A stretch of 64,000 nucleotides of DNA from an uncultured Planctomycetota bacterium (GTDB lineage: Bacteria > Planctomycetota > Planctomycetia > Isosphaerales > Isosphaeraceae): positions 32,001-96,000 of the forward strand of contig CAWJTV010000038.1 of the NCBI GenBank assembly GCA_963845755.1. Reading direction: 5' to 3'. Each line of letters starts with the position of its first letter. The first letter of the stretch is position 1. Both the position numbers and the translations under genes were made by a program. The notes beneath the pieces are model-generated. The model was not told the origin of the DNA and did not search any database. It saw only the letters and a program-made list of their open reading frames with translations. Shown here piece by piece: positions 17,860-32,700 of this stretch.

Positions 17860-18007
17860 AAGGGACTCAGCCGGTTACCTGTCACGGCTCTGACAGGACA
17901 GGCTCATGAACTCCGGCACAAGACGAACCGCGGCAGCCGCCTACCCGACCGTTACTTACCTCTACCCGGCGACCGGGAATCGACGATTGCATGCACTTGC
18001 CAACCGG

Positions 18008-18110
18008 CAGGCTGTGGGACAAACCACCGAATCCGCCCTGCATCAAGCCGTGGGGCAAATACCCTGGGGTCACAACCTCGTCCTGGTCGAGCCGCTCAAG
18101 GCTCTCCGTG
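18008..18110 (+). pseudogene. Remnant of a DUF1016/YhcG (PD-(D/E)XK nuclease) N-terminal domain
   Basis: QAVGQ..LHQAVGQIPWGHNLVLVEPLK matches the QQ.VGQIPWGHN.LL..LK signature as recalled for this family; the rest of the gene is absent. Confidence 0.55.
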
Positions 18111-18190
18111 AGCGGCGCGCCGAGTTGGCTTAACCGCGGCGATGGCAAGCGAGGGAGCGCCAGGATCATGAAGCGTTTTGAGCACACCCG

Positions 18191-18276
18191 GCCGACCGCA
18201 GGTCTCCAGTTCCCACACCCGTCAGGAGACCTTCGGTCCGGCTTACGGCGGGGTCAGGAGACCCGCGCCGAACGGA
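18191..18276. repeat. Composite palindromic intergenic element (REP-like)
   Basis: GACCGCAGGTCTCC / GGAGACCTTCGGTC inverted pair, followed by hairpin CGGCGGGGTC-AGGA-GACCCGCGCCG; GTCAGGAGACC occurs twice. Confidence 0.55.
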
Positions 18277-18407
18277 ATTCCAGAAGTTATTCCCATCCCG
18301 TTCCCAGGCACATCAGGACGATCTGCTCGGATTCCGGAAAAAGTTGTATCGGAACACCGGGGTCCGTGCATCAAATAGGAGATTCTCAACGCGCGGGGGG
18401 ATCTGAT

Positions 18408-20360
18408 ATGAGGTTACACCGGTTCGTCGGTCCGGACCTGGGTCGGATCTTCCGGGGAGAGACGGTCTCCGGACTTTCGGAGTGGCAACTGCTGGAGCGT
18501 TACCTGGAGCGGCGTGACGAGGCGGCGTTCGAGGCCCTGGTCAGCCGTCACGGGCCGATGGTCCTGGGGGTCTGCCGGCGGATGCTCAGAGACACGGCGG
18601 ACGTCGAGGATGCATTCCAGGCGACGTTCCTGGTCCTGGTGCGTCGTGCGCGGCAACTCGGGCCTCGGGATGCGATCGGCCCGTGGCTGTACGGCGTCGC
18701 CGCCCGGGTGGCCTTGCGGGCACGGTCGCAGTTGGCTCGTCAACGCCGTCATGAGCCGGTCGCCCTGGAATATCCGGCCGCCGCGCCGGTCGGCGGGTGG
18801 ATCGATCCCGACCTGGGCGACGTGCTCGACCAGGAATTGAGCCGGCTCCCGTCCAAGTATCGATCGCCGCTGGTCCTCTGCTACCTGGAGGGCCGGACGC
18901 ACGAAGAGGCCGCGCGGGAGCTGAACTGGCCGGTCGGCACGGTCAAGGGCCGGTTGGCCCGGGCGCGGGACCTCCTGCGGTCGCGGCTGACTCGCCGCGG
19001 CCTGGCGCCGACCGCAGGCGTCCTGGCCACGCTCGCGACGTCTGATGCGACGGCCGTGCTCGAACGTCCCGTGATCGAACGAACCGTCAGCGCGTCACTG
19101 AAATTCGCTTCGGGGCAGTCCCTTGCCCAGGTCGTATCGACCTCGATCACCTCACTCGTCGAAGGAGCCTTGGCCGCCATGATCCTCAATCAACTGAAGT
19201 GGGCCGGTCTTTCGATCCTCGTTGCCGGACTCGCATTGACCTCGGCCGGGGTGATGGCCCGGCAGGAGGCCAAGTCGAAAGCCGATCCGCCGTCGACCGC
19301 GGTGAAGGCTGAATTCAAGGCGGCTTTGTCGGACTTCGAGAAAGCCGCACGGAAATCCGACGAGAATCCGCCTGCGGCAAAGAATGCGCCCACGTTCGAT
19401 CCCCGCGAGGAACTGGTCCAGGCTGCGCGGTCGGCGTATCGAGCCACCTGGGAAGCCTACCGCGCCGGGCACGCCTCCGCCGAGCAGGTCGATCATGCCT
19501 CGCAGAAGTGGATGGAAGCCCAGGACAAGGTGCCGAGCAACTCCGAAGCCCAGGTCGCCGCCGCCGATGCCCACCTCGAGCGGATGCGCGAGCTCCTGCG
19601 AGTCCAGGCCGACCGGCCCGGATCTCCATCCAAACCCGCCGAACTGGCTCGGATCAAAGGCTATGTCGCCGAGGCGCGCTTCCTCGTGGCCCAGGCCAAG
19701 ACCCGGCCGACTTTGGCGGACGTCCCGAGCGCAGGCGGATCGGGCGAAGGCGAGGGCTGGGGCAAGGACGCGAAGTCGCGGCAGGTCCTCGCCAAGCTCG
19801 AGGAACCGATCTCGATGTCGTTCGCCGCGGAGACGCCGCTCGACGACGTACTGAAGTACATCAAGCAGGCGACGACCACGCCAACTTACGCCGGAATCCC
19901 GATCTACGTCGATCCCATCGGCATGCAAGAAGCGGAACGATCGCTCAACTCGACCGTCCAGTTGGACCTGGAAGGGATTCCCCTGCGACGGACCCTGCAA
20001 TTGCTCCTCACCCAACTGGGGCTGGTGTACTTCGTGGACGACGGGATGCTCGTAATCACCTCGGCGGATTCGGAACAAAGGGGGTTACCGCCTTCGATGC
20101 TGAAGCAATCTCCCATCCTGGCAAGGGCCGCGAAAGCCGAGCGTGGCGAGCTCACAAAGGCCGAGATGGAGGAATTGATCGAGGATTTCAAACTGCGCGA
20201 GACCGTATTGAGCTACGCCGCGGGGAAAGGGATATCCACGCATGAAGAGGGAGCAAAACGGGATCGCGAACCGATGAACCAGGTTGTCAAGGAGTTACGC
20301 GAGCTGGTCGAGCAGTTGAAGGCCGAGCGGCAGGCGAAGAAGGAGTCGGGGGCGAAATGA
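18408..20360 (+). CDS. ECF sigma-70 factor with a long planctomycete-type C-terminal extension
   Basis: [32 protein letters not shown] (region 2), [31 protein letters not shown] (region 4), a TM helix, then an extracytoplasmic domain. Confidence 0.92.
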
Positions 20361-20670: not shown

Positions 20671-23600
20671 TCACTTCTCCGGCTGTAATTCCCGCCCGGC
20701 CAGGAGTGCCTCGGCCTCCTTCAGGAGCCTTTGTGCTTCTTCATCTCTGGCCGAATTCGGCTTCTGCATCGTCTCGCGTAATCGATTCAGGCTCGCCTGA
20801 GCTCGGTCCTTCTCACCCATCTGGTACCGGGCCATCGCCAGAAAGGCCAGGTCCGCCGGAGCGTGACCCCCTTGATCCGCCTGGTTGAGTTCGTCCGCGC
20901 GCGTCAGCGTGGCCAGGGCCTCCTGGTACTTCCCCAGGCGGTACTGGGCCATCCCCAGAGTGGTATGGTAGGAACCCTCAAACGGAATGAGGCGGCAGGC
21001 GATTTCCGCCTGATGAACCGCCCGGCGGTACGCGGCGGCTCCAGCGCCCGGACGGGAGGCGACCGCCCGACTGGCCCGGTCAAGGTAGCGCGGGGATTCC
21101 CCGAATCGCTCCGCCAGGGCCAGGGCCTCTTGCCGTACAGGTTCGCTAAGGACAGGATCGGCGCGGAGGTGTGCGAGGATCTCAGACCGGAACAGAGGCT
21201 TGTAGATGAGAGACTTCACCGCTTTCTCGGCCTCCTGACGGACGCGGTTTCGCCAAAACGGCTCGACCAGGGTGAGAGCTTGCTGCCGCACGGCGTCGCT
21301 GACGGCGTAGTCTCTGAGCCGGGCCGACACCGCCTCCGGGGCCGGCGATTGGGCGAACAGGAACCTGACCAGGCTTGCCGCCTGCCGCTGTTCGGCAAGT
21401 TCCGTGTCGAGGGGGGACCCTTCCCAGATCGTCACGCCCTCGTCTCCACTGACCGCGAGGCGCCGGCCACCGCGATCGAACGCCACACGGTGCAACTGGG
21501 CCGGCACCCGCGCAGGGTAAGGATTTCCTGTCCGTTGAGGGCGTCCCAGAGCTTCACTTCACCGGAGAAATGCCCTCCCTTGCTCACCCCGCCCGCGGCG
21601 GTGACAAGCCGCCGGTCGTCAGGACTGTACGCCACCCCAAGCACGGCGCTCGTATGTCCGCGGAGAGTAAGGAACGTCTCTCCGGTGACCGCGTCCCAGA
21701 CCTTGACCGACCCGTCTACACTCGCGGCGGCGAGCCGCGAGCCGTCGGGACTGTACGCGATGCGTGTGACAGATCCCTCGAGGCCGGACAGCGTGAGGAT
21801 CTCCTGTCCCGTGGCCGCGTTCCAGACACGCACGGTCCGGCCCGCACTCGTGGCCAGGCGCTCACCGCCGGGGCGATAGGTCACGTGGGCGAACCCGGGG
21901 TCTCTGCCAGGCTCGGTTCGCCCGGGCCGTGTCAAGACCGTCTGCCCCGTCCTCATGTCCCAAATCATGACCTCGCCGGGAACGAGCCGTCCTCCCCCCG
22001 CCAACTCGCGGCTAATGGAAGCGAGACGCTGACCGTCGGGACTAAAGGCCACAGCGTGAATGGAAGCGGTGTGTCCTCGTAAACAGAAGATTTCGACGCC
22101 GTTCGTCGCATCCCAGACACGTACAGTCCGATCCTCTCCGGCGGAAGCGAGCCGCCGGCCGTCGGGACTGTACGCCACTCCCAGAACGGCACGGCAATGC
22201 CCGGTCAGTGTGAAGACCTCCAGCCCCGTGGTTGTATCCAGGATACAAACCGTGTTATCCGTGCCGACCACGGCCAACTTCCGGCCGTCCGGGTCAAACG
22301 TCATATCCTCTATGCGGCCGACGGCCGCGCTCAAAGTGACGGCGTCCATCGCCGCCGTCGCATCCCAGAGCTTCACCGTGCCGTCCCCACTCCCAGAGGC
22401 CAGGCGCCAACCGTCGGGGCTAAACGCCACACTCGCGACGCCGTCCTTGTGGCCGCGCAGGACGGCGGCTTCTTGCCCGGTGGTCACGTCCCAGACCGTC
22501 ACGGAATCGTTCGCAGCCGCAGCCGCGAGTCGCCGCCCGTCCGGGCTAAACGCCAGGCCCACAACTCCACCCACCTGTTGAAAGGCCAGGGTTTCTCTCC
22601 CCGTGTCCGCGTCCCAGACCTTCACCACCCCATCGTTGCTGCTCGAGGCGAGGCGCCGGCCGTCGGGGCTGTACACCACGCTGTTGACCAAGTACGGGTG
22701 CTTGCCCAGGCGGAAAAGGTCTTTTCCCGTGGCGGCATCGCAGACACGAATCGTAGGACCGTCCGCAAAGGCGAGTCGCCGCCGCGGCTCCGCCGCGGCG
22801 GGGCTGAAGGCCACGGCGATGGAGGCAGTCGGCACGGCCGCAGCCTCGTTCCCCGGAATGCACAGCAGTTGCTTCCCACCGGCCGCGTCCCAGACTTTCA
22901 CTTCGCAGGGTAAGACCGAACCCGTGGGAGCAACTCCCCTGCCGAAGGAGGCGAGCTGCCGGCCGTCCGGGCTGAACGCCAGGCCCCAGACCGGAGTGGC
23001 GTGCGCGGGCAGGCCAAGAAGCTCGCGTCCGTTGGCCGTGTCCCATAGCTTGATCTCGCCCGGAGTGAACACTCCCCCATTCGCGGAGGCCAGCCGCCGG
23101 CCGTCCGGACTGAAGGCCAAGCAAGATACGAAGTCCTTGTGCCCGCGCAGGCAAAAGCGCTCCCTTCCCGAGGCCACGTCCCAGACCTTGACCTCCCCTG
23201 GTTGGCCATAATTGCCGGCGGCGGACGCGAGCAGTCTACCGTCCGGACTGAAGGCCACGCAGCGGACGGGAGCCGTGTTGCCGAGCAAGGTGCGCATGTC
23301 GAGCCGGCACAGGCGCTGCAAGTGGTACCACTCGAAGCTTCGCAGGTCCGGCGCACCGGGTTCGTGCGGTTTGAGGACGTCGAGCCGCCGCTCGAGCGAA
23401 GCGAGTTCGCCCTCCTGCCAGTCCTTCTGGGCCAGGGTACTTTCCGCGGCGTACCAGCGTCGGTCGCTACGCGCTTTTTCGGTCTCCAACCTCTGGGCGT
23501 AGGCGAGCGTGTCTTGCTCCCGGTTGCTGGCCTGGATCGCGTAATGCGACGTGCCGGCCATGCCCAGCAGCAGCGAGGCCGCCACCGCGCCGAGTAGGAG

Positions 23601-24842
23601 TGCCACGGCCGGGTTGCGCCGGCACCAGCGCCACGCTCGCTCGGGGCCGGAGATGGGCCGGGCCACGATCGGCTCGCCGGCGCGGAACCGGCGGAGGTCC
23701 TCGGCCATCGCCGCGACATCGGGGTATCGCCGAGCCGCGTCCTTTTGCAGCGCCTTCAGGCAGATCGTCTCCAGGTCGCGGGGCATGCGGGGAATGAGCT
23801 GTGACGGAGCGACCGGCTCGGCGGTCCGGATCAGGTCGAGGGTGTCCAGGATGGACGACCCGCGGAACGGTGGCCGGCCGGTGAGCATCTCGTAGAGGGT
23901 GGTGCCCAGCGCGTACTGGTCGGCGGCGGGGCCAGCCTTCTCGGCGCCGGTGGTCTGCTCAGGCGCCATGTAGCTCGGCGAGCCGAGGATCGACCCGGTA
24001 CCGGTCTGGCCCGAGTCGGCCTCGAGCCGCTTGACCAGGCCGAAGTCGGCGATCTTTGGCGTCGTGTCGGCAGCGAGGAGGACGTTCGCCGGCTTGATGT
24101 CGCGGTGGACGATCCCACGGCGGTGGGCCACGTCCATGGCCCGGGCCAACGTCTCGATGATCCGCGCCGCGTCCTCGATCGGCTGCGGTTTGCCGGCGAT
24201 CCGCTGCGCCAGGCTGCCTCCCTCGAGAAACTCCAGCGAGAAATAAGGCAGGCCGTCGTGCTCGCCGATCTCGAAGATCTTGATGATGTTGGGGTGGTCA
24301 ATCGCGGCGACGGCGCGGGCCTCGGCCTCGAAGCGAGCCAGGTCGTCCGGTTGTGCACCGGCGCCGGCCTTGATCATCTTCAGCGCGACCAGGCGCTGGA
24401 GCCGGAGGTGCCGCGCCTTGTACACGATCCCCATGCCGCCGGCGCCCAGCACTCCCAGGATCTCGTAGCCGGTGATCCGGGGCCGTTTGTCGCCCTCGCG
24501 GCCGACGGTCGATCGGGACGCCTCCTCCGTATTCGCCGCCGCGACACCAGGCGAGTGCACGAAGCCCTCGGTGGCATCGGGGTCGTAGTCGGCCGTCGCA
24601 TCGCGGTCCGGTGCGGTCGGGGCGTCGGGATCCCGGTCGGCGGTGGCATCACGGTCGAAGTCCGTGATCGCGCCGCGGTCGAGGTCCGTGATCGCGCCGC
24701 GGTCGAAGTCGGTGGCATTCGGATTCGAGACCTCGGCATCGGGCTTGTAGTCAGCCGTCGCGTCGCGGTCGAGGTTGGTGACCGCGTCGCGGTCGAGATC
24801 CGCGGCATTCGGATTCGAGGCCTCGTCTGGGAGACGTGCCAT
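20671..24842 (-). CDS. Ser/Thr protein kinase with WD40 propeller and C-terminal TPR-like region (frameshift at about 21510)
   Basis: LGAGGMGIVY, VALKMI, HRDIKPAN, DFG, YMAPE; a hydrophobic helix; many GH..V..VAFSPDGRRLAS..D.TVKVWD repeats; TLGMAQYRLGKYQEALATL. Confidence 0.95.
24560..24825 (-). repeat. Imperfect 24-nt (8-aa) tandem repeats at the kinase N-terminus
   Basis: DRDAVTNL DRDATADY ... DRGAITDL DRGAITDF DRDATADR DPDAPTAP DRDATADY DPDATEGF; SNPNA(A/T)D occurs twice. Confidence 0.85.
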
Positions 24843-24976
24843 GAGTGACCCACCCTACGACGGTTGACCTGGCACGCTGCCGCTGACCGGACCAGCCCCG
24901 AGCACGAACGAGGGATCAAAGAGACCTGCTCGCTCGCGCTCGGCTGGTTGATACGTAATCCGCTTAGGACAACAGG

Positions 24977-25222
24977 TTATAGGCCCCCGACTTTGCAACC
25001 ACAAAACCCCGTGCCCGGATCAAGGTCACATATCTGACCAGTAGCACAGCATGTGGCCGTGCCGTTGCTGCAAATGCAAGCATTGGGATAACTGGGATTC
25101 ATACAACTGATGACGGTGTGAGCGGGTTCGATGCCAGGTTCGGTGCTGCCGCGGGCGGGTCGGTGCGTTGGCCAGGAACAGCTCCCACGGACGACCGCGG
25201 GTGCTTGCACGGGAGGTTTCAT
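24977..25222 (-). CDS. Putative RiPP precursor 2: cyanobactin-like leader plus 8-Cys core (81 aa)
   Basis: AAGGAG RBS at 25230-25235; MKPPVQAPAVVR...GIEPA|HTVISCMNPSYPNACICSNGTATCCATGQICDLDPGTGFCGCKVGGL; paralog of the neighbouring ORF. Confidence 0.82.
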   Translation of the reverse strand: MKPPVQAPAVVRGSCSWPTHRPARGSTEPGIEPAHTVISCMNPSYPNACICSNGTATCCATGQICDLDPGTGFCGCKVGGL

Positions 25223-25288
25223 GTCCGGTCTCCTTTCAAGTGGACCCGAGGGAAAAAAGGTGCGCGGGGATGGCTTAATTTAGAAGCT

Positions 25289-25344
25289 GTTTCTAAACGG
25301 GGACTGGCTCCGAGTCTTCGAGGTGCCTGTCCCCCTTTTGAAAC
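25289..25344. repeat. Imperfect palindrome (REP-like or RNA hairpin) between the two precursor genes
   Basis: GTTTCTAAACGGGGACTGGCTC ... GTGCCTGTCCCCCTTTTGAAAC. Confidence 0.65.
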
Positions 25345-25350
25345 CGCCTT

Positions 25351-25629
25351 TTAGGGCTTGGGCTTGCAGGCACACCCGCCGGTGAGAATGGCATTACCAT
25401 CCTTAGCCGGTTCGCACCCATACTGGCAGCAATTGCAGGTACCATTAGGGCACCTGCACACCTGATAATTACTGTCAAAGTTGCACTTCCACTTATCACG
25501 TGAGGCGTTACCTACACAGACGTCGAAGTCGCTTCGGAAGGACGCAGAGACGCCATGGGCCGAAGAACGGCGGGCCGGCCAGGAGTGGCCCTCACGGAGG
25601 ATGGCTGCGGCTTGCACGGGAAGCTTCAT
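25351..25629 (-). CDS. Putative RiPP precursor 1: cyanobactin-like leader plus 10-Cys core (92 aa)
   Basis: AAGGAG RBS at 25637-25642; MKLPVQAAAILR...GVSAS|FRSDFDVCVGNASRDKWKCNFDSNYQVCRCPNGTCNCCQYGCEPAKDGNAILTGGCACKPKP. Confidence 0.82.
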   Translation of the reverse strand: MKLPVQAAAILREGHSWPARRSSAHGVSASFRSDFDVCVGNASRDKWKCNFDSNYQVCRCPNGTCNCCQYGCEPAKDGNAILTGGCACKPKP

Positions 25630-25679
25630 GTTCAGTCTCCTTGTGGGTTGCCCGGCGCAGTGCGCTGCCGGGGACACAT

Positions 25680-27543
25680 TCAGCGCGTGAACCAGGCCGC
25701 GCGTTCGGACCGACCGTCACTGGCACGGTGTCGCTGACGTCCACCGTAAACCGGTACACCCGGCGCACCGTCTGCACCTGCCGCTCGGGATAGAAGAAGT
25801 ACAGTTCGACATCCCAGCACTCCGAGCCGGGTCGGCAGATCGGGCTGCGGACGACGTTGACGCTCTCCAATTCCATCTTTTCCTTCAGGGCGGCTTCGTA
25901 GATTCTCTCGAAGGCAAAGGCATTGGTGGCCGCGAAATTGATGGCCCGGTCCTGCGGCGTCAGACCCAGGTTGCGCAGGCCGTGGTAAACGCGGTCGAGG
26001 AAGTTGCGGAGGCCCTCCGTGCGCTGCGCATGCGCATCGCGCTCGGGCTGGGGAGCCTCCGCCGCGGGCGCGGGGCCGGCCACTGAGTCCGTCAGGGCCG
26101 CAGTCGTCCAGCTAAACATGCCGCGCAATTCCGGCACGATGACGGGCACGACCTGCCCCGTCAGGAGCGTGGCCTTGCCGGCAACGACGCCCGGGATCGA
26201 TACACGCTCGACCCCCTCGTCCAGTTGCTCACGCAGGAACCGCCGCAGTTCCTTGTAAGCGTCGGCGGCGAACGGTCCTTGCGGCCGGACCGCGTAAATC
26301 GCCGTGCCGTCGAGAGAGAGGGTCCATTCGACGGAGGCGGCGTCCCAGGGGTGCTCGTCGAGATAGTCGAGCATCCGCCGGGGGTCGAACGCCAGGACGC
26401 GTTCCGTATGACTCGCACCGGTGACGCCGGCTATCACCTGGGCGAGGCTGTCGAGGCGGGCTTCGCTGACCAGGTCGTAGCCGAGCTGGCCGAGAGCGTA
26501 GACCAACTGCCGCGACCCGGCCTGACAACCGCAAGCGGACGGTTGGACTGCCGCGGGGCGAACCGCGTTTTCGGTCGGGCCGGGTGGGATCGGCGAGGCC
26601 GCGTCCAGGTTGTCTTGGCTTGGCGCCACCTCGCTCTGTGAGGCGGTGGAGTCGGACATGGTCAGCATACTCCGCGTGAGGATTGTTACGGCTCCATCGA
26701 CACTCAACCGTCCAGCCAGGAGGCGGCGGCAATCCGTTGTCGGCTTCTGATCACATCCGAGGGCACTGAGCAACAATGCCTCCCGGACGAACTGCGGGCT
26801 CGGCTGCCGGCCGCGTTTTCGCTGCAAACTCAGGAGCAGGGCCGCGACTCCCGAAACCACGGCCGTCGCGTAACTGGTGCCGGTACCCGCGCCGTACCTC
26901 CACCGGGTTGCGCTCCCAGTATATCCACGCCCGGCGCCAATATCCCCTGGATTCCGTAAAGAGCGCCCCAATTGCTGGACTCGAGGGGTTTCCCCTGGGC
27001 ATCCATCGCGCCCACCGCCAGCACCGAGTCGAGGGCGGCGGGGACGTGGAGGCACGCGCAACCGTCATTGCCCGCGGCGGCGACGATCAGGACGCCGCAC
27101 CGGGCGCAATCGCGGACCACGTCGGCCAGCAGCGGGTGAGCAGTGCCCGAAGGGGAAAACTGTCCGCCGCTGATGTTGACGACGTGGGCGCCCTGCTGTA
27201 CCACCTGGGAGATGGCCCGTGCGAGATCGAGTTGCGAACAGAGCTGAATCGACTGCTCACTGACGGACTGAAAAATCGGCACGAGGACGCCTCGGCAGAG
27301 CGGCGCGAGGCCCGGCACGGGCCCGTCGTGCTGGCCGAAGATCACGCTGGCGATGTGGGTACCGTGCCGGCTGGCCAGGCCGAGGTCGGCGGTCCCCGAA
27401 ACCAGGGTTTCCACCTGCGTGAGGTTCGCAGTTTTCAAACTCGGGTGGGAGCGGTCAACCGGCCCGTCCAGCACCGCGATGCAGACCGCGGGATCGCCAA
27501 GGGTCTCGGCCCAGATTTCTCGGATTCCGGAGAGGAGGCCCAT
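25680..27543 (-). CDS. PatA-like cyanobactin maturation protease: S8 domain plus PatA/PatG C-terminal DUF (frameshifts at about 26887 and 25700)
   Basis: Catalytic triad IAVLDG, HGTHIASVIFGQ, GTSYAT; CSQLDLARAI, NISGG, AAAGNDGCACLHVPAA; DUF motifs LVYALGQLGYD, FLDRVYHGLRNLGLT..DRAINFAATNAF, SPICRPGSECWDV, VYRFTVDVSDTVPVTVG; corrected end ..AWFTR-stop at 25680. Confidence 0.93.
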
Positions 27544-27672
27544 GACGATACAACCGCAATCTGCCCACGAAGATGAACGCTAGAAGTGGTCGCACGCCTT
27601 GTGAGCCCACTCCCCTGTGTGTCACTAGGATAAGCCGCCCGCCACGCGATGACAAATGAAAAACGCATCCTG

Positions 27673-29792: not shown

Positions 29793-32700
29793 ATGCAAGG
29801 TCTTGCGCGCTTGTTACCGTACGCTCTGGCATTCACGAGCAGTCTGTGCATCATGATCCTGGAGCTGGTTTCGAGCCGGCTGGTCGCGCCGCACGTCGGC
29901 TCGTCTTTGACGGTCTGGACCAGCGTGATCGGGATCATCCTCGGCGGCATCTGCTTGGGGAATGTGCTGGGAGGCCGGCTGGCGGACCGGGTCCAGCCCC
30001 GTCGGGCGATCGGACCGCTGTTCGCCCTGGGAACGTTGCTGACCCTCGCGACCTTGTGGATGAATGGGGCCGTCGGCAGCATCCTCCCGCGCCCCGACCA
30101 GATGAACTGGGAGCTGCGGACGATCCTGGTCGTGACGGTCGTTTTTCTGATCCCTGCGACCGTCCTGGGAATGGTCGGACCGGTCGTCGCCAAGATGGCC
30201 GTGGAGCAGGCGGCGAAGTCGGGCAGCGCGATTGGCGACGTGTACTTCTGGGGCGCGATCGGATCGATCGCCGGCACGTTCCTCTGCGGCTTCGCGCTGA
30301 TGGCCCTGGCCGCGACCTCCACCATCGTCATCCTGGTCGCTGCGGCACTCGCCCTCCTGTCGGCGGCATTGATCGGCACTCCCGGCGGCTGGATTGCCGG
30401 TCTGTTGACAGCCCTCCTCCTGGTGCTGGGCGCGAGCCCCGCGGTGGTGAGCGGGCTCGGTCTCGGTGGCGTGAACCTCGGCTCGTACACGCTGAATTAC
30501 ATCGTCGTGGCGGGGAATGTCCTGGCTTGCGCCCTGGGCCTCGTCGGCCTGACCGGCCTGCTGGGCGCCGGACGGACGAACGAGGACGTTTCCGCCAGGC
30601 CGGCTTCCAAACCTGTCCTCAAGGAGGAGGACGAGGATCAACCGCGCCCCGGCTTGTGGGACCTGGCCGCGCTGGCCTTCGTGGCCAGCCTCGTGTTCAT
30701 GGCCCTGGAGATGGTCGCCGGCCGGATGGTGACCCGGCATCTGGGTTCCAGCATCTACGGCTGGACCAGCGTGATCGCCGTCCTGCTGGCCGGCCTGAGC
30801 TTCGGCAACTTCCTGGGCGGCAAGATCGCCGATTTCATCAAGAACGAGAAGCACGCGAGCTGGCTGTTCCTCGTCGCATCGGTCCTCACCCTCGTCATCC
30901 TGGTGCTGGAAAGCCCGCCCAAGTGGCTCCACGACCAGTTCCTCGAGGATATGCCGCTGAATCGGTCCATACTGAGCAGCGCGATCTCGCTCGACCATTT
31001 ACCCCTTCCCGGCGGGAACGCCCTCGACCTCTCCTGGCCTTATCGCATCCTGCTGGTCGTCGCGATCGTCTTCTTCCTCCCCGCCTTGTCGCTGGGAACC
31101 GTCAGTCCGGTGGTCGCCAAGCTCGCCGTCGATCGCCTGAAACGCTACCAACGCACCGGCACGGCCATCGGTGAGGTGTACGCCTGGGGGATGGTCGGCA
31201 GCATTCTCGGTACCTTCCTGACCGGCTTCTTCCTGATCGACACACTCGGGACTAAGGGGGTCATCCTGGTGCTGGGGACCGTCCTGGCCTTCGGCGCGAC
31301 CATGCTGGGCACCCTCTGGCATGCCATCTGGGCCGGGATCCCGCTGGGTCTTTGCGTCCTGGCGTTCACCCCGCCCGGATGGGTGGATTCCGTCAATCGC
31401 CTCATGCCCTGGTTCCCCAGCGGTCAGTCCTTCGAAAAGATCGGGCTCGACTGGGGCATCCGCGAGAAACAGGGGGACCTCGGCGACAAGAAGGCGGAGC
31501 TCGCCTGGATCGATGAGAGCAAGTACTATTATATCAAGATCGAGAACGAGCTCCTCGGCGACGGCGAGACCCATCGCCGTACGCTCGTGCTCGACAATCT
31601 GATCCATGGATACTTCATCCTCGGCCACCCCGAGCGGTTGGATTACGATTACGAGCACATCTATGCCCTGGTCGCCTACCGGGCCGCCAAGGCCGGCGGC
31701 AAGGTGACGTTCAAGCCCGAAGCCGACATCAAGGGTGAAGATTCGACCCCATCGCCTGACGCGAAGCCCGATGACAGTAGTCCGGCGAAGCCCGCGGAGC
31801 CCAGCAAGGGCGGCGCAACCGAGTCACCGAAACCGGCCGACCCGAAGGACACCGACACGACCGATTCGCCCAAGGCGGAGGCCGGATTGAGGAGCATCCC
31901 CGCGTCGATCCAGGACGAGAAGGGATCCGGCACCCCGGCCCAGAAGGACGCCCCCAAGCCGGAGCCCAAAGCCCCGACGACCCCGCCCAAGGCAGAGGCC
32001 CCTGCCGGGGACCAGGCCGGAGCCAAGCCAGCCGAACCGCCCAAGAAGGACGTGCCCCAGGCGGAGAAGCCGGACGCCTCTCCCGAGAAAACGGATGCGG
32101 GAGAAGTCGAGAAGAAGGAGGTTCCCAACGATCCGGATAAAGAGAAGATCCAGGAGGACCTCTCGAAACTCAAGAAGATGGTCTTCCAGGACGAGCGACC
32201 CGAGCCGTATATCCCACGCGGGTCCGCGCCGAACCTCAAGACCTTGTTCCTCGGCGGCGGCGCCTATTGCTTCCAGCGGCACATCCGGTACGTCTACGAG
32301 GGGGCCGGGGTCGACGTCGCCGAGATCGACCCGGCCGTCACCAACGCGAACTTCCAGGCCACCGGCCTCACCGAGCAGGACCAGATCCAGACCTACTGGG
32401 GAGACGCCCGCCAGTTCGTCGAGCTGCATCAGGATACCAACAAGTACGACCTTGTCTTCGGCGACGCGTTCAACGACTTCTCGGTCCCCTGGCACCTCAC
32501 GACCCGCGAGTTCAACGAAAAGATCAAGAAAATGCTGACTCCTAATGGCGTCTATATGATTAATATCATCGACGTCTACGAGTCGGACAAGGAGGCCCAG
32601 AAGAAGGCCGAGAACGAGATCGAGAGAGACAGCGTGTCCGACGAGGGGAAGAAGACTCGGATCCACAAGAAGTACCAGGAGCAGGCCCGCCGCTATGGCG

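Follow-up and report, generated by a model that had tools for sequence, protein, structure and literature searches.

What is a PatA-type protease doing in a planctomycete beside two small genes for Cys-rich peptides, with none of the other enzymes of a cyanobactin pathway encoded nearby? This question is raised by contig CAWJTV010000038.1 of an uncultured bacterium of the Isosphaeraceae (assembly GCA_963845755.1), of which we analyzed positions 32,001 to 96,000, a stretch of 64,000 nucleotides (nt) referred to here as the window. The locus of interest encodes an S8 (subtilisin-like) protease carrying PatG_D and PatG_C domains and, on the same strand, two small open reading frames (ORFs), each with a predicted N-terminal leader and a long core rich in Cys (table 1). 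We proposed that this locus is probably a minimal leader-peptide maturation module that would release linear, Cys-rich cores, and we infer both the cleavage and its exact site from sequence.

A PatA-type protease and two candidate precursors

The assembled sequence splits the protease between several reading frames, giving two overlapping ORFs (pieces A and B). Piece A matched Peptidase_S8 (E = 5.3e-19) and scored 223 bits against TIGR03895 over profile positions 1-158, and piece B matched PatG_D (E = 3.1e-10) and PatG_C (E = 5.1e-38) and scored 421.6 bits against TIGR03895, the cut-off of which is 421.05; the first ~45 and the last ~37 residues of piece B are out-of-frame read-through. Compared with solved structures, piece A scored 264 bits with PagA (4h6w) and 227 bits with PatA (4h6v) versus 107 bits with the PatG macrocyclase (4aks/4h6x), and an intact relative of the protease gave the same order (250 bits on the PatA/PagA side versus 105 for the macrocyclase). 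The structure of the PatG domain of unknown function (4uvq) scored 178 bits against piece B. An alignment of 50 relatives showed no variation at the catalytic Asp, His, and Ser or at the oxyanion Asn, and all were found in the window pieces, the Ser in a different frame from the Asp and His. Thus, because the PagA and PatA structures outscored the PatG macrocyclase, and because the PatG domain of unknown function and TIGR03895 were both matched, we concluded that, by sequence, the protease is PatA-type and not PatG-type. No signal peptide is apparent at its N-terminus, which aligns with PagA from residue 4.

The products of the two small ORFs are paralogous (BLASTP E = 3e-8, 31% identity over 70 residues), and both start with the box M-K-(L/P)-P-V-Q-A-x-A-(I/V)-x-R. 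According to a review, PatA-like enzymes cut after G(L/V)E(A/P)S (PMC10885120); the window leaders end in G-I-E-P-A and G-V-S-A-S, and those of relatives in G-(I/V/L)-x-P-(S/Q). A cut after residue 30 of precursor 1 (G-V-S-A-S) and residue 34 of precursor 2 (G-I-E-P-A) would leave cores of 62 and 47 amino acids (aa) with 10 and 8 Cys, respectively; precursor 1 holds 10 Cys in total and precursor 2 holds 9, one of them within the leader. Both precursors end no more than five residues past their final Cys and carry neither a follower nor a C-terminal recognition sequence. Neither belongs to a family in Pfam or NCBIfam, and none of 20 relatives rose above a cut-off, PatE-type models included. A search of 5.8 billion protein clusters returned only 18 unnamed proteins, and a search of the ESM Atlas with precursor 2 gave no usable match.

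Orthologues of precursor 2 lie behind the protease in three related genomes, G430, G429, and G446 (phmmer E = 3e-22 to 9e-22); three metagenome proteins share 70-81% identity with it. Precursor 1 has two homologous copies in G430 (phmmer E = 1e-18 and 8e-18). When seven precursor 2 sequences were aligned, seven of the eight core Cys columns were invariant, compared with 13 invariant columns among the 43 ungapped columns of the core (hypergeometric P = 3.6e-4). Contigs from the near-identical run X1 cover both genes, one spanning 25325-25697 (precursor 1) with a single mismatch and one being identical over 24965-25270 (precursor 2).

Table 1. Features of the window (positions in the window) and the three other PatG_C loci of the genome (positions in the respective loci)
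Feature	Position	Strand	Description
Protease gene	27543 down to ~25680	-	Read through, ~620 aa, S8 + PatG_D/PatG_C
Protease piece A	26830..27543	-	237 aa; N-terminal two thirds of S8 with catalytic Asp and His
Protease piece B	25592..27061	-	489 aa; catalytic Ser motif, S8 end, PatG_D, PatG_C
Frame break 1	26884..26889		Three consecutive C (G on the coding strand), just ahead (5') of the codon for the catalytic Ser
Frame break 2	25698..25706		Two extra bases near the protease 3' end
Ribosome-binding site of precursor 1	25637..25642	-	AAGGAG, 7 nt before ATG
Precursor 1	25351..25629	-	92 aa; predicted leader of 30 aa, with the N-terminal box and the G-V-S-A-S site, then a core of 62 aa with 10 Cys
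Dispersed repeat	25283..25350		68 nt, hairpin-forming; within the 128-nt spacer separating the two precursor genes
Ribosome-binding site of precursor 2	25230..25235	-	AAGGAG, 7 nt before ATG
Precursor 2	24977..25222	-	81 aa; predicted leader of 34 aa, with the box and the G-I-E-P-A site, then a core of 47 aa with 8 Cys
Ser/Thr kinase-WD40 gene	21432..24842	-	1136 aa; Pkinase E = 3.3e-46, WD40 repeats; 134 nt downstream of precursor 2
Sigma-70-like promoter match (weak)	27627..27655	-	84 nt upstream of the protease start; 9/12 hexamer matches
C14	L059:5563-12092		Separate S8 and PatG-domain genes, then Cys-rich peptides
C31	L061:4993-7431		Separate S8 and PatG-domain genes, then Cys-rich peptides
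C36	L060:7968-10878		Remnant PatG-domain locus

Most of this layout had been described in a first-pass annotation of the window made from its letters and ORFs, and the description stood. The protease, the two small ORFs, and the kinase-WD40 gene are all co-oriented on the minus strand; AAGGAG precedes both small ORFs; the two ORFs, given as 92 and 81 aa and paralogous, are so; and the core lengths and Cys counts given there are reproduced if the cuts fall at G-I-E-P-A and G-V-S-A-S. The reading of the large gene as a ~620-aa S8 protease with the C-terminal domain of PatA and PatG was confirmed by Pfam, TIGR03895, and the structure scores, the last of which put it nearer to PatA/PagA than to the PatG macrocyclase. 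In agreement with the annotation, which had noted a kinase on one flank, no PatB, C, D, F, or G gene was found near the protease and precursor genes.

These features suggested a simple maturation scheme. Two ribosomal precursors, each with a 30- to 34-residue leader that carries the conserved box at its N-terminus and G-(I/V)-x-(P/A)-(S/A) at its end, would be cut after the leader-end site by a cytoplasmic PatA-type subtilisin with a C-terminal PatG-type domain, encoded just upstream. The cut would set free two linear cores, one of 62 residues (10 Cys) and one of 47 (8 Cys), without macrocyclization, heterocyclization, or prenylation. The released cores may form disulfides, as in a knottin-like mini-protein, may bind metal, or may be modified by unlinked enzymes. 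The complex predicted for the intact protease of the relative G462 and its own peptide scored 0.53, compared with 0.01 for the best of three controls; the runs agreed in at least 60% of contacts and the pLDDT (predicted local distance difference test) of the partner was at least 59, a result that speaks to the pairing and not to whether the peptide sits at the active site or at the PatG-type domain. Among 157 solved complexes, 116 passed the mark applied here, against 2 of 215 mismatched pairs; at scores up to 0.60, only 18 of the 157 solved complexes did so, and both of the passing mismatches fell there, counts that are only rough with our own alignments used. This prediction weakly supports the pairing of protease and peptide.

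Recurrence of the pairing and the search for other pathway enzymes

The protease itself is rare in a sample of the phylum, with 2 of 401 genomes including that of the window, and occurs in 26 of the 121 genomes and 14 of the 53 genera of the window's order. The 28 neighborhoods fetched from the order, together with the window, gave 29 loci, in which candidates were same-strand small ORFs adjacent to the protease and showing the leader pattern. The candidates share the box M-K/R-L-P-x-Q/L-..-V-x-R at the N-terminus and often have a G-(I/V/L)-x-(P/A)-(S/Q/A) site resembling the published cleavage motif of PatA. The leader pattern, with an internal control, replaced a 14-residue leader hidden Markov model (E = 0.01), which was dropped because it failed to detect the peptides of the window itself and passed over 33 of 101 loci. 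An adjacent candidate was present at 20 of the 29 loci, 19 of them Cys-rich and one a PatB. At the more distant loci of the order, the leader reads M-R-L-P-x-L-S-x-x-V-x-R and precedes six-Cys cores with spacings fitting the cystine-knot pattern.

A wider scan was performed with six intact proteases as the query and one genome per species; it returned 155 relatives, of which 72 loci were kept. The bacterial titles include Acidobacteriota, Alpha-, Beta-, and Gammaproteobacteria, Chloroflexi, Nitrospira, Clostridia, Cyanobacteria, actinomycetes, and Entotheonella, and the archaeal titles Methanosarcina and Thermoproteota. Adjacent same-strand candidates were found at 54 of the 72 loci, 92 in all; downstream of the protease they number 369 per Mb of strand, versus 20.6 elsewhere in the same loci. 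At least four Cys are present in 68 of the 92, and tandem copies number up to nine, at one Methanosarcinaceae locus. Across 52 aligned peptides, M1 and P4 of the leader box are invariant and R12 is nearly so. The leader pattern with a stop 40-130 aa further on was counted 87 times over the whole 14.27-Mb genome of the window; at least four Cys are encoded by 17 of these ORFs, 5 of which are situated at PatG-domain loci. Because the pairing recurs at 20 of 29 loci of the order and at 54 of 72 loci from many phyla, we concluded that, on the evidence of gene neighborhoods, it is not due to chance. The first-pass annotation had suggested collecting these neighborhoods and had held that homologous proteases lacking such small ORFs would speak against its reading; the small leader ORFs are there at most of the loci.

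A third class of small proteins was also observed beside these proteases (L084:3605-3799, L096:4671-4862, and L061:5917-6117). The leader box stands at the start of two of the three and is degenerate in L061, and all share a two-Cys body of the form G-L-G-D ... P-C-x-x-C ... L-N-R-W, with no Pfam or NCBIfam family.

A genome-wide search for YcaO, PatF, and PatG had likewise been suggested. In the genome, which is 87.9% complete, no match was found to YcaO (PF02624), to the LynF/TruF prenyltransferase (TIGR04445), or to PatB (TIGR04220), in a search in which control genomes were positive for YcaO only. No PatG-type macrocyclase was found either, and the genome holds only one full PatA/G-type gene. 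No modifying enzyme recurs among the 106 neighbor proteins of 30 diverse loci, nor at 12 loci of the order; among the 30, YcaO was observed only at a canonical Nostoc locus, and a second S8 gene only at the actinomycete and a few other loci. As far as conserved neighborhoods tell, the module is a protease with a PatG-type domain, fused or split, together with peptides.

Frame breaks and competing explanations

Is the protease intact in nature? At break 1, contigs of X3 and X5, soil runs from two studies, are ~92% identical to the window, have depths of 4.7 and 2.9, and carry one extra C behind 26885 that unites pieces A and B in frame; the assemblies of three of four close relatives are without one base inside the same 13 nt, at positions that seem not to be identical. 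At break 2, a near-identical contig of run X2 (1 mismatch in 151, depth 2) is without one base at 25698 and one at 25706, and the X5 contig is without 25698 and 25704. With this break corrected, the protease stops at ~25680 with the consensus C-terminus of six intact relatives; as assembled, its C-terminus departs from that consensus and runs 37 residues over the start of the precursor 1 gene. In a genome-wide control, 49 of 234 kinase domains were read in more than one frame over ~750 nt; to our knowledge, no real genome has so many split domains. Thus, because short-read contigs are in frame and kinase domains are split throughout the genome, we concluded that the frame breaks are most likely assembly indels and that the protease is most likely intact in nature. 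The first-pass annotation had spoken of a frameshift-corrected protease, which is to be amended in that the natural gene is most likely whole. Given an assembly so rich in frame breaks, apparent pseudogenes in this genome are not to be taken at face value.

Three other explanations were weighed against the release of linear cores by an active protease. The locus could be decaying, with a protease truly frameshifted in this strain and small ORFs that are drifting relics of a formerly active module: there are three indels in 1.9 kb relative to intact relatives, the frames are broken in the close relatives G430, G446, and G429 as well, and the ratio of nonsynonymous to synonymous substitution rates (dN/dS) of the peptide genes is near 1. 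However, indels of this kind occur throughout the assembly, as the split kinase domains indicated, and in-frame versions are present in short-read contigs; moreover, the peptide ORFs have stayed open, with invariant Cys and the AAGGAG kept, in four genomes and three metagenome proteins, and relatives still share 78-85% identity in the downstream domains of the protease. We regard decay as very improbable. We regard as equally improbable the view that the small ORFs are PatB-like accessory or regulatory partners, bound through the shared box and not cut, although they occupy the patB position directly after a patA-type gene and the Cys-rich precursors share their N-terminal box with bona fide PatB-family proteins (TIGR04220, 91-134 bits; L094:7288-7488, L106:5550-5762, L117:5544-5750, and L112:5043-5261). 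Two relatives even match TIGR04220 weakly at their N-terminus (E = 0.12 and E = 0.0028), but the window peptides have no match to this 61-position model with its 55-bit cut-off. In addition, hypervariable cores, a fixed Cys scaffold, and tandem paralogues (up to nine) are the pattern of products, a PatA-like cut site lies ahead of the core, and the same box heads obvious multi-core precursors in actinomycetes.

The third explanation concerns what happens to the cores. In a full pathway for peptides made on the ribosome and modified after translation (RiPPs), unlinked enzymes would modify the Cys (thioether, heterocycle, or other) ahead of leader removal. The usual task of a leader is to guide modifying enzymes, no reader is assigned to the N-terminal box, and the search of the 14-Mb genome covered only the YcaO, PatF-type prenyltransferase, PatB, and PatA/G families; yet no modifying enzyme recurs beside the module in either set of neighborhoods, and the pair of S8 and PatG domains, fused or split, is the only constant partner of the leader box. 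We consider such tailoring unlikely.

A minimal module releasing linear cores thus remains the reading that we prefer, and a number of observations weigh against it. The protease is out of frame as assembled; the break at 26885 is mended only in the ~92%-identity contigs of depth below 5 and not in same-strain reads, and the near-identical runs X1 and X2 gave no contig spanning 26885. No candidate peptide was found at 9 of the 29 order-level loci, two of which are contigs of ~2.5 kb, or at 18 of the 72 wide loci, four of which have fewer than 600 bases downstream, and the loose cleavage motif is matched by only 41 of the 92 candidates. No exporter or thiol oxidoreductase is conserved nearby at the 12 order loci and the 30 diverse loci; with no signal peptide on the protease and no exporter close by, the Cys-rich cores would therefore be formed under the reducing conditions of the cytoplasm. 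In vitro, no binding to PatE was seen for the homologous PatG domain of unknown function (PMC4259220). AlphaFold2 modeled precursor 2 poorly from the seven-row alignment (mean pLDDT 55.4), with a disordered leader; four short strands in the core reached a pLDDT of 60-71, a quality too low for a fold to be named. For the peptide genes, pairwise dN/dS was 0.7-1.2 overall and 1.4-1.6 in the precursor 1 core, and they show no general signal of purifying selection; that they are coding is therefore argued from the open frames, the leader, and the Cys columns. Rapid change of the core around a Cys scaffold that stays fixed fits a diversifying product and, taken alone, would also fit weak constraint.

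Genomic setting and relation to known systems

The window's PatG_C locus is one of four in the genome and the only one that is fused (table 1). The peptides at C14 and C31 have up to 14 Cys and a different leader box, M-x-(L/M/F)-P-G-(F/L)-... At three of the four loci (the window, C14, and C36), a Ser/Thr kinase gene starts at most 1.7 kb downstream on the same strand, the one at C14 behind an extracytoplasmic function (ECF) sigma gene. The 14.27-Mb genome has kinase domains at 228 places, so that this exceeds expectation, although the numbers are small, and we treat it as a lead only. The window kinase has an orthologue at the corresponding position in G430 (74% identical over 1123 residues) and in G429, and the kinase-WD40 gene is possibly linked to the module. 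Separately, five loci of the order (L036, L038, L039, L040, and L047) have two von Willebrand factor A (VWA) genes, the protease, and the peptide, followed by convergent kinase-WD40 and ECF sigma genes. Orthology of the kinases across clades was considered and rejected: the window kinase is 37-39% identical to the convergent kinase-WD40 genes of the other Isosphaeraceae-type loci versus 42-58% to paralogues in its own genome. Since the paralogues of its own genome are closer than the kinases of other clades, the kinase link is one of repeated adjacency and not of shared descent.

Upstream (5') of the protease lie ORFs without any family and then pfkB and Uma2 genes; the one sigma-70-like site found there, where 0.2 were expected, is a consensus match only. 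The repeat between the precursor genes folds as RNA into a long imperfect hairpin with a z-score of only -1.84, has 78 blastn-short matches in the same genome, and is represented in soil runs by very deep contigs with many loose ends. About 1 kb beyond the kinase-WD40 gene and on the opposite strand, a 789-aa ORF (17991-20360, plus strand) carries sigma-70 regions 2 and 4 at residues 183-330.

The relation of the module to cyanobactins was addressed with a FastTree phylogeny of 50 proteases (619 columns), rooted at the midpoint, which is not a secure root. The Nostoc sequences, which have PatB and YcaO adjacent, group with actinomycete sequences (support 1.0); G429, a proxy for the window clade, groups with two Gemmataceae-titled sequences (0.97), and the link of its clade to the other Isosphaeraceae-type clade is unsupported (0.10). 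In this tree, canonical cyanobactin PatA appears as one well-supported clade among the homologues of many phyla. Cyanobactins are described as exclusively cyanobacterial in a 2015 review (PMC4663559). The first-pass annotation had proposed that a cyanobactin leader and protease module was reused in a planctomycete. What stands of this is a PatA-type protease with leader-bearing precursors that have long Cys-rich cores and no other cyanobactin enzymes; the reuse by a planctomycete does not, since the module occurs in many bacterial and archaeal phyla and canonical PatA is just one clade.

The actinomycete homologues deserve a description of their own. Just upstream of the protease, they have Cys-free precursors (L119:3196-3366, L123:3181-3357, L128:3218-3358, L130:3181-3357, and L132:3139-3360) that open with the leader box seen elsewhere, then hold short repeated cores bounded by A-G-V-E-Q-S-like sites, and close with an acidic C-terminal follower; a second S8 gene lies downstream. 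In their make-up, these loci look like true macrocyclic cyanobactin-like pathways.

If the protease does release the cores, the module would represent a widespread bacterial and archaeal route to leader-guided Cys-rich mini-proteins, built from one protease and at least one gene of 60-100 codons, and one that gene callers and family libraries currently overlook. No role is known for PatB, PatC, or the domain of unknown function (PMC4259220 and PMC4663559); the module, if real, would give a testable context for PatB and for the domain in PatA and PatG. It would also recast cyanobactin pathways as a specialized branch of a larger family and offer a compact two-gene system for libraries of disulfide-rich peptides. 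A bolder picture is that of a pan-prokaryotic pro-peptide convertase of which cyanobactins are one branch, with a PatG-type domain that reads the leader box, also that of PatB, and with planctomycete Cys-rich peptides that signal to WD40 kinase and ECF sigma circuits; we hold this picture, as a whole, to be quite unlikely. The first-pass annotation knew of no characterized pathway of this sort, and our literature search, the coverage of which excluded supplements and most subscription journals, likewise found no description of stand-alone PatA-type proteases with Cys-rich precursors.

Several known systems resemble the window in part. In eukaryotic precursors of knottins, conotoxins, and defensins, a conserved pro-region precedes a hypervariable core on a fixed Cys scaffold, and the core is released by subtilisin-like convertases. 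This likeness is one of working; no homology was shown, and the fold model is too weak to compare. QhpC is a Cys-rich leader peptide acted on by QhpE. As the window protease would, the S8 proteases NisP, ElxP, and QhpE take the leader off a ribosomal peptide (PMC10885120). The window is unlike these systems in that piece A matched the QhpE model NF049966 weakly (39.7 bits versus a cut-off of 165) and in that it has no radical S-adenosylmethionine enzyme, flavoprotein partner, or lanthipeptide enzymes. PatB, AcyB, and McaB (TIGR04220) share with the window peptides the position directly downstream of a patA-type gene and the first ~12 residues; however, the PatB body is conserved and almost free of Cys, whereas the bodies of the window peptides are variable and Cys-rich. 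One PatB of the kind that shares the box adjoins a PatA-type protease in G520, a genome of the window's own order.

The closest comparison is with the cyanobactin pathways themselves (pat, tru, pag, and related ones). The window differs from them in lacking a PatG macrocyclase, a C-terminal recognition sequence, YcaO, a prenyltransferase, and PatB/C, in the length of its cores, which have 47 and 62 residues and 8-10 Cys where those of cyanobactins are short, and in its planctomycete host and a module spread over many phyla. It shares with them a PatA/PagA-type S8 protease with C-terminal PatG_D and PatG_C domains, a leader box in the precursors with a G-(L/V/I)-x-(A/P)-S-like site right before the core, and several precursor genes per locus with hypervariable cores.

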